Source: Escherichia phage ECO95 1-6-1. From it: 2,119 bases of DNA. The notes under the pieces were generated by a model, which was given only the letters and a program-made list of their open reading frames with translations, was not told the origin of the DNA and made no database searches. Shown piece after piece: positions 1-147 of the stretch (position 1 is the first letter of the stretch; each line of letters starts with the position of its first letter). The stretch is from sequence record OR845555.1; one strand, written 5' to 3'. A program made the translations under genes and the position numbers.

Positions 1-19
1 CCCCCACATCATGTGGGGG
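1..19. other. Perfect 19-nt palindrome / GC-rich hairpin CCCCCACAT-C-ATGTGGGGG at the window edge
   Basis: Positions 1..9 are the exact reverse complement of 11..19; a stem of at least 7 bp (CCCCCAC/GTGGGGG) is predicted. No U-tract follows on the plus strand; the minus-strand downstream context lies outside the window, so a terminator role cannot be assessed. Confidence 0.4.
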
Positions 20-83
20 AAGACAGGGATGGTGTCACAAAAAAGCACCTAACCTGATGATATAAATGGATTTATATCAAACA

Positions 84-106
84 CTGTCCACATAGCGTCC
101 ACATCG
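84..106. repeat. Two direct copies of GTCCACAT (86..93 and 97..104) spaced 11 bp apart; related copies TCCACAT(A/C) at 3..10 and 153..160
   Basis: Read directly from the sequence; four occurrences of a 7-8 bp motif within 160 bp is far above chance for a motif of this length. Candidate recombinase arm-type or other protein-binding sites; function not established. Confidence 0.4.
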
Positions 107-109
107 ACC

Positions 110-146
110 ATAAATAAAGCCCCTCAACTGAGGGGCTATTTTTGTG
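110..146. terminator. Bidirectional rho-independent terminator immediately downstream of ogr
   Basis: GC-rich 8-bp stem AGCCCCTC (118..125) pairing with GAGGGGCT (130..137) around a 4-nt loop AACT; on the minus strand it is followed by TTATTTA (complement of 111..117) and on the plus strand by ATTTTTGTG (138..146); the hairpin starts about 10 nt after the ogr stop. Confidence 0.75.
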
Positions 147-147
147 A

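Follow-up and report, generated by a model that had tools for sequence, protein, structure and literature searches.

The sequence downstream of ogr very probably forms one half of a WΦ-type attachment site, with a core that overlaps the 3' end of the host gene cpxQ

Positions 1–147 of the window (the whole 2119-nt stretch of DNA analysed here) very probably constitute the ogr-proximal half of an attachment (att) site that belongs to a P2-like phage (Peduovirus) of the WΦ type, with most of a 47-bp core and the whole of the P arm. The original prediction had suggested that this segment is the att region of a relative of P2 that integrates with another specificity, and this was borne out: the P2 core is absent and the WΦ core is in place. 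The system itself, the WΦ att site, is already known; the comparisons reported here establish where the core lies and how far it extends, that the arm is homologous to annotated footprints of P2, which locus is used for integration and on which side of position 9 the crossover falls.

The core was delimited by a four-way comparison of the attP of WΦ, the attR and attL of a prophage and the empty attB of Escherichia coli K-12; alignment with P2, WΦ and prophage-free genomes, the check proposed beforehand, did reveal it as the segment common to the phage and the empty site. Its sequence is GATAAAAAAAACCCCCACATCATGTGGGGGAAGACAGGGATGGTGTC (47 bp), and the block common to all four sites can be written GAT(A)8CCCCCACA[T/G]CATGTGGGGGAAGACAGGGATGGTGTC, i.e. 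GATAAAAAAAACCCCCACA[T/G]CATGTGGGGGAAGACAGGGATGGTGTC, with its right end at window position 36. The core spans −10 to 36: the first 11 nt (GATAAAAAAAA) fall just left of the window and the right-hand 36 nt occupy 1–36 (no strand assigned). It is identical to the WΦ core at 47 of 47 positions. The prophage of E. coli O157:H7 F8492 is bounded by perfect direct repeats of the 47 bp (L004 634–680 and 31033–31079, 30,399 bp apart), and a core common to attP, attB, attL and attR, repeated directly at the prophage ends, is one of the marks of a P2-type att site. Leftward of the core, the WΦ attP and the F8492 junction are unrelated, with int in the phage and the DNA upstream of fieF in the chromosome. 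A core length of 47 nt was reportedly given for WΦ by Karlsson et al. in 2006; the length found here was measured independently.

A query spanning the junction found matches in all of the 5426 complete E. coli genomes searched, and in 7 of 10 cases sampled across the ranking of these genomes, those with an empty site, the match ended exactly at window position 36. The junction itself, with a match running on into the P arm, is carried by 790 of the 5426 (carriage being defined as coverage of at least 80% of the junction query). The published WΦ site lies at MG1655 coordinate 4104392, between cpxP and fieF (PMC3448106; PMC3032704), where Wphi1 is also listed (PMC3032704). Both marks of the WΦ integration-specificity group, the WΦ core and an attB between cpxP and fieF, were found. 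Part of window 1–460 is matched by a much larger number of genomes (∼4940 of the 5426, versus the 790 with a prophage at cpxP–fieF); the excess is probably due for the most part to the widespread ogrK-D' remnant near cyaR, which is listed for K-12 (PMC3032704).

Prophages in seven E. coli chromosomes, F8492 among them, match the window at 100% identity over its full 2119 nt, and all seven sit between fieF and cpxP. Genomes of Peduovirus, including WΦ and P24B2, are 97–98% identical to the window (98.1% over 2119 nt for the top phage record), and int comes next in them, on the plus strand. The location between ogr and int that had been proposed was confirmed in WΦ, which has the same 147 nt with one mismatch (position 81) and is arranged as int (L001 1894–2874, plus strand), the window-equivalent region (3001–3147) and ogr (3148–3366, minus strand). 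Looking leftward in the relatives, as had been suggested, places the int stop codon 126 nt left of position 1 in WΦ, and host DNA upstream of fieF in the identical prophages.

All genes of the window lie on the minus strand. The ogr gene (148–366) encodes a 72 amino acid zinc-finger activator of late transcription (Pfam Ogr_Delta, E = 1e-21), is annotated as ogr or ogrK in the relatives and is 96.8% identical to P2 ogr at the nucleotide level. At higher coordinates lie the genes for the tail proteins gpD (448–1611; Pfam Phage_GPD) and gpU (1611–2090; Pfam Phage_P2_GpU), and 2105–2119 is assigned, from where the tape-measure gene T lies in F8492 (L004 2749–5196), to the 3' end of that gene. The claim that 1–147 contains no convincing open reading frame stood up: there is a single GTG frame of 26 amino acids (77–157), which was rejected as a gene and overlaps the terminator and the arm sites. 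A promoter scan of positions 1–500 found none. In strain 23CRST038 (NZ_AP045810.1), an IS4 lies within the region equivalent to the window. Two deposited 'phage' records, PV340563.1 (query 3–91) and ON470601.1 (query 47–91), stop within the att core or right at its border, which suggests that their sequences were excised from prophage coordinates and do not represent packaged cos-ended DNA.

The P arm was interpreted by comparison with P2 (NC_001895), in which the annotated order after ogr is ogr terminator, Int P arm, IHF site, core, Cox site and Int P' arm. The arm in the window is 71% identical to that of P2 and aligns to its terminator, Int P arm and IHF elements. The term attR used for the prophage case in the original prediction agrees with P2 convention, since the ogr-side arm is the P arm in NC_001895. 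Two predicted arm-type Int sites in direct repeat, TGTCCACAT (85–93) and CGTCCACAT (96–104), align with the P2 feature annotated as 'Int, P arm' (protein_bind) and occupy 85–104 on the minus strand; the equivalent of the P2 Int P-arm footprint, from the alignment, extends over about 82–108. Read on the minus strand they are ATGTGGACA and ATGTGGACG, the two sites being the reverse complement of the P2-type arm-site consensus tgTGGaCa (PMC3448106). The two direct repeats one helical turn apart seen earlier are exact copies of GTCCACAT (86–93 and 97–104) with a spacing of 11 bp; ∼0.06 exact 8-mers would be expected in 2 × 2119 nt. Two further copies of the motif had been claimed, and neither held. 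At 3–10 the best register is 2–9 with 6 of 8 matches, of which just the 6-mer CCACAT (4–9) is intact; at 153–160 the sequence concerned is instead ATCCACAT at 152–159, in the last ogr codons, with 7 of 8. Both were rejected as extra arm sites, being not above chance and outside the P2 Int footprint, and the resemblance of ATCCACAT to the arm motif is probably a coincidence. When one mismatch is allowed, five matches (including the two exact ones) are found versus 1.7 expected, which is not clearly above chance.

Between the core and the arm sites, the P-arm spacer at 37–78 (no strand assigned) is homologous to the annotated IHF footprint of P2, with the alignment in register. It contains a match to the IHF consensus with one mismatch, TATCATCAGGTTA, at 50–62 on the minus strand, next to an A/T-rich tract (63–80). 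This is the sole match to WATCAANNNNTTR in the window with up to one mismatch, and taken alone it is at chance level (at least one match in 150 of 200 shuffles). Binding of Int and IHF at these sites would be expected from the homology to the P2 footprints together with the consensus matches. A second pair of repeats, TGTCCACA, is found on the int side in both WΦ and the prophage, where the P' arm TGTCCACATAGTGTCCACA adjoins int; each side of the core is thereby provided with at least two direct arm-type repeats, as in a P2-type att site. The P' arm and the expected Cox-binding region, located between the core and the P' arm sites, lie outside the window, which holds one arm of the att site; the records compared contain no annotation of WΦ Cox sites. 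The cognate tyrosine integrase, encoded beside the site in the 100% identical prophage and outside the window, is a 326 amino acid protein with an arm-binding N-terminus (Pfam Int_N and Phage_integrase) and is identical to WΦ Int at 322 of 326 positions (99%).

The bidirectional terminator dyad that had been reported was recovered at 118–137, where a terminator scan scored a hairpin on both strands. It is a G+C-rich hairpin followed by a T-run in either direction, that is, a rho-independent terminator, serving ogr (minus strand; bidirectional by sequence) and in P2 the F operon as well. The predicted RNA fold of 105–150 has a free energy of −21.8 kcal/mol (z = −5.8), and 112–140 aligns with the annotated ogr terminator of P2. 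The hairpin is not part of the recombination site. Salmonella phage FSL SP-004 (L010 1381–2120; Stockinghallvirus, another genus) carries an identical 47-bp core and both pairs of arm sites with a different terminator and an extra 135 amino acid ORF between att and ogr; it follows that the recombination module ends near 107, the terminator forming a unit apart from it. Together, int and att have the look of an exchangeable cassette. A permissive Rfam scan of the whole window gave no match for CpxQ; sub-threshold matches to Phe_leader, isrJ and STnc100, all due to the terminator at 118–137, were rejected as not credible.

In the host, the core falls on the 3' end of a small RNA gene. It corresponds to L003 1845–1891 in K-12, with one mismatch, and cpxQ is annotated at L003 1831–1888, so that the core amounts to CpxQ nt 15–58 (the last 44 nt of the sRNA gene) plus 3 nt; the target site is ∼80 bp upstream of fieF. 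The sRNA itself, ∼60 nt long and dependent on Hfq, is released by RNase E from the cpxP 3'UTR (PMC9438474). The perfect palindrome described at 1–19 is present, with 9-nt arms around a central C, and forms part of the true core; on the minus strand it corresponds, according to the K-12 cpxQ annotation, the core mapping and the RNA fold, to the terminator hairpin of the cpxP mRNA and CpxQ, with the U-tract outside the window. A full cpxQ gene (58 nt at the cpxP 3' end, including the 5' 14 nt and the U-tail) is not contained in the window, which has the equivalent of CpxQ nt 15–50, fused to phage DNA and separated from cpxP. In a lysogen, the functional copy of CpxQ is the one at attL. This overlap follows directly from the current annotation and is a re-description rather than a new system; a literature search of titles and abstracts found no paper linking CpxQ with this phage att site. 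In the attL of strain P276M (L009 ∼37700–37760), the core has 9 A then CCCC versus 8 A then CCCCC, a change that alters the base pair at the outer end of the terminator stem of CpxQ and that reflects either a true mutation or an error in sequencing the homopolymer.

The side on which strands are exchanged was read from a natural T/G polymorphism at position 9, in the terminator loop (no strand assigned). This position is G in the K-12 attB and T in WΦ and the window, and G was found there in none of 43 phage records. G is present at attR (the fieF-side junction) in 51 genomes, and in the four such lysogens in which attL (the cpxP-side junction) was read, representing at least two different prophage types, attL has T in every case; no attL with G at position 9 was seen among the best matches. 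Position 9 is thus host-derived at attR and phage-derived at attL, which places the crossover to the right of it, within 10–36. This interval includes an inverted repeat at 21–36 (read from the sequence; no strand assigned), composed of AGACA (21–25) and TGTC (33–36) with a 7-nt spacer, GGGATGG (26–32). The repeat is CpxQ stem-loop 1, which in the K-12 CpxQ fold has a 5-bp stem and a 7-nt loop. From this layout, we propose that 21–25 and 33–36 are probably the core-type Int sites and the 26–32 spacer the overlap (crossover) region. Should the window be of prophage origin, bases 1–9 derive from the host, and probably all bases up to ∼25.

A plausible course of integration can be outlined on this basis; the 790 occupied sites and the reciprocal alleles (G at attR, T at attL) are indirect evidence for recombination dependent on Int, IHF and Cox. 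The N-terminal domain of Int would bind the paired arm sites (85–104, plus the second pair beside int outside the window) and its core-binding domain the core, while IHF would bend the 37–78 spacer so that a single Int molecule could bridge arm and core. The recombination partner would be the chromosomal copy of the same 47 bp in E. coli, at the cpxQ 3' end (i.e. the cpxP 3'UTR and terminator), with exchange right of position 9 and most likely in the 26–32 spacer. The long identity block would let the phage replace the cpxQ 3' end at attL, as do phages integrating into tRNA genes, and by this analogy a crossover at 26–32 may explain why identity continues down to the end of cpxQ, the phage resupplying this 3' end. 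The host's own CpxQ terminator, once displaced, would land at attR, where it would correspond to window 1 to ∼25 if the window is from a prophage. That WΦ-type integrases use CpxQ stem-loop 1, with its tRNA anticodon-arm geometry (5-bp stem, 7-nt loop), as their crossover point and that lysogens express a chimeric CpxQ is a tentative proposal, to which we give a little less than an even chance.

Exchange could alternatively take place inside the 1–19 palindrome, for example with an overlap CATCATG (7–13) between CCCCCA and TGGGGG. The palindrome is the strongest dyad of the core, and the polymorphism rules out no more than a crossover left of position 9, so that 10–19 is compatible with it. 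We consider this location unlikely. Position 9 would then be inside the overlap, where heterology normally blocks exchange by tyrosine recombinases, and yet phages with the T allele have integrated in hosts with the G allele, leaving a clean G at attR and T at attL. A nearly symmetric overlap would moreover not set the orientation of integration, whereas a crossover at 26–32 would explain the whole identity block to the cpxQ end as restoration of the gene 3' end.

Other readings concern the nature of the segment as a whole. It might be a free-phage attP, with int just left of the window, rather than a prophage attR: WΦ, P24B2 and ∼40 other phage records have int linked to this core and P arm, and the window begins inside the core with no flank in view. 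The best phage record is nevertheless 98.1% identical while seven chromosomal prophages are 100% identical, which makes the free-phage state the less probable one, at perhaps a chance in every four; the choice touches the state of the DNA alone, the att site being the same either way. A different placement of the core had also been put forward, starting at AAATAAAGCCCC (112–123) and taken for a diverged form of the P2 core, given as AAAAAATAAGCCC...; the core in NC_001895 is AAAAAATAAGCCCGTGTAAGGGAGATTT. The sequence is indeed present at 112–123, and ∼10 nt of it bear a superficial likeness to the core so given. As the start of the core it fails: 112–140 follows the P2 ogr terminator base for base and not the P2 core, host–phage identity stops at 36, FSL SP-004 retains the att module with a different terminator, and the comparison of attB, attL and attR puts the true core at −10 to 36, with 11 of its 47 nt left of the window. 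We regard this placement as refuted. Refuted as well is the reading that 1–147 is ordinary intergenic terminator DNA in which repeats arose by chance and which has no role in recombination. Terminator-like hairpins do dominate the region, and the weak Rfam matches are confined to the terminator, but the prophage boundaries are precise, with 47-bp flanking repeats and 790 occupied along with thousands of empty sites; the arm is homologous to experimentally annotated Int and IHF sites of P2; and a cognate integrase is present. The junction comparisons likewise contradict an alignment of 1–147 to ordinary host intergenic DNA throughout, the outcome that had been named as fatal to an att site, since host–phage identity ends at 36 and the rest matches the P arm of the phage.

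The WΦ-type att site thus remains the preferred identification, and WΦ itself (Peduovirus Wphi) is the closest known system: the core and the locus between cpxP and fieF (yiiP) are the same, 1–147 has a single differing base (position 81) and identity over the remainder of the window is 97%, without any difference of substance. The P' arm spacer of the prophage differs from that of WΦ and is a variant also present in FSL SP-004. In P2, the order and spacing of elements after ogr are as here, with homologous terminator, two arm-type sites and IHF region (71%) and the same kind of heterobivalent tyrosine integrase. The P2 core (AAAAAATAAGCCCGTGTAAGGGAGATT, 27–28 bp) is, however, unrelated to the 47-bp cpxQ 3' end used here: that core, the mark of the P2 (locI) specificity group, is not found, and positions 1–36 show 35% identity to it, a random level. 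Since the cores are unrelated, integration specificity differs; identities to P2 of 96.8% in ogr, 71% in the arm and a random level in the core form the pattern predicted for such a difference. The P' arm sites also differ in placement, following the int stop codon in the WΦ type and overlapping it in P2. Phages 186, HP1 and Fels-2/SopEΦ, which integrate in the 3' part of tRNA or tmRNA genes (PMC3448106), likewise carry their own version of the 3' part of a gene for a small structured RNA, which implies that the gene is rebuilt at one junction; here the identity block runs from a hairpin (5-bp stem, 7-nt loop) to the gene end. In contrast to these phages, the target here is an Hfq-dependent, 3'UTR-derived sRNA (CpxQ) and not a tRNA, and the integrase is of the P2 type and not the 186 type; a crossover in the hairpin loop is a proposal for the present system.

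Several features of prophages at this locus were noted in passing. Remnants of ∼1.9 kb lie between two cores at cpxP–fieF in NZ_CP032237.1 (L006 109–2022) and NZ_CP044293.1 (L009 ∼37700–39600); in each, an internal deletion has taken out nearly all of the prophage and left ogr, int and a truncated C repressor gene, so that the integrase and the att junctions at either end are preserved. Cargo located between the portal gene and replication gene A varies by prophage (L004 22692–24899; L007 14257–17309; L008 25352–31796): it encodes an AAA ATPase in F8492, a Dcm methylase, a hypothetical protein and a ParB-N protein in H9Ecoli, and a BbrUII/HgiDII restriction enzyme, a methylase and a PAPS reductase in G6/7. 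We take this position to be the known P2 hotspot for anti-phage defence genes. In the G6/7 prophage, the baseplate J gene is split by ISEc12 (L008 11852–14152).

For annotation, the analysis supplies the true prophage boundary (the 47-bp core), sets the ogr terminator apart from the recombination site and identifies the paired GTCCACAT repeats as predicted integrase arm sites. This very common prophage family targets an envelope-stress sRNA gene, cpxQ, at its 3' end, which means that lysogeny swaps part of the gene for a phage copy; the allele swap in the terminator loop implies that at least that part at attL is phage-derived. The cpxQ point is a modest one, perhaps useful in the annotation of sRNAs and prophages, and leaves the accepted picture unchanged. 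If the proposed crossover in stem-loop 1 is right, every lysogen (∼15% of complete E. coli genomes) would express a CpxQ in which the 3' two-thirds, including the Hfq-binding terminator, are phage-encoded, and an orphan host terminator with part of the CpxQ body would remain downstream of ogr at attR, from where it could be freed from read-through ogr transcripts.
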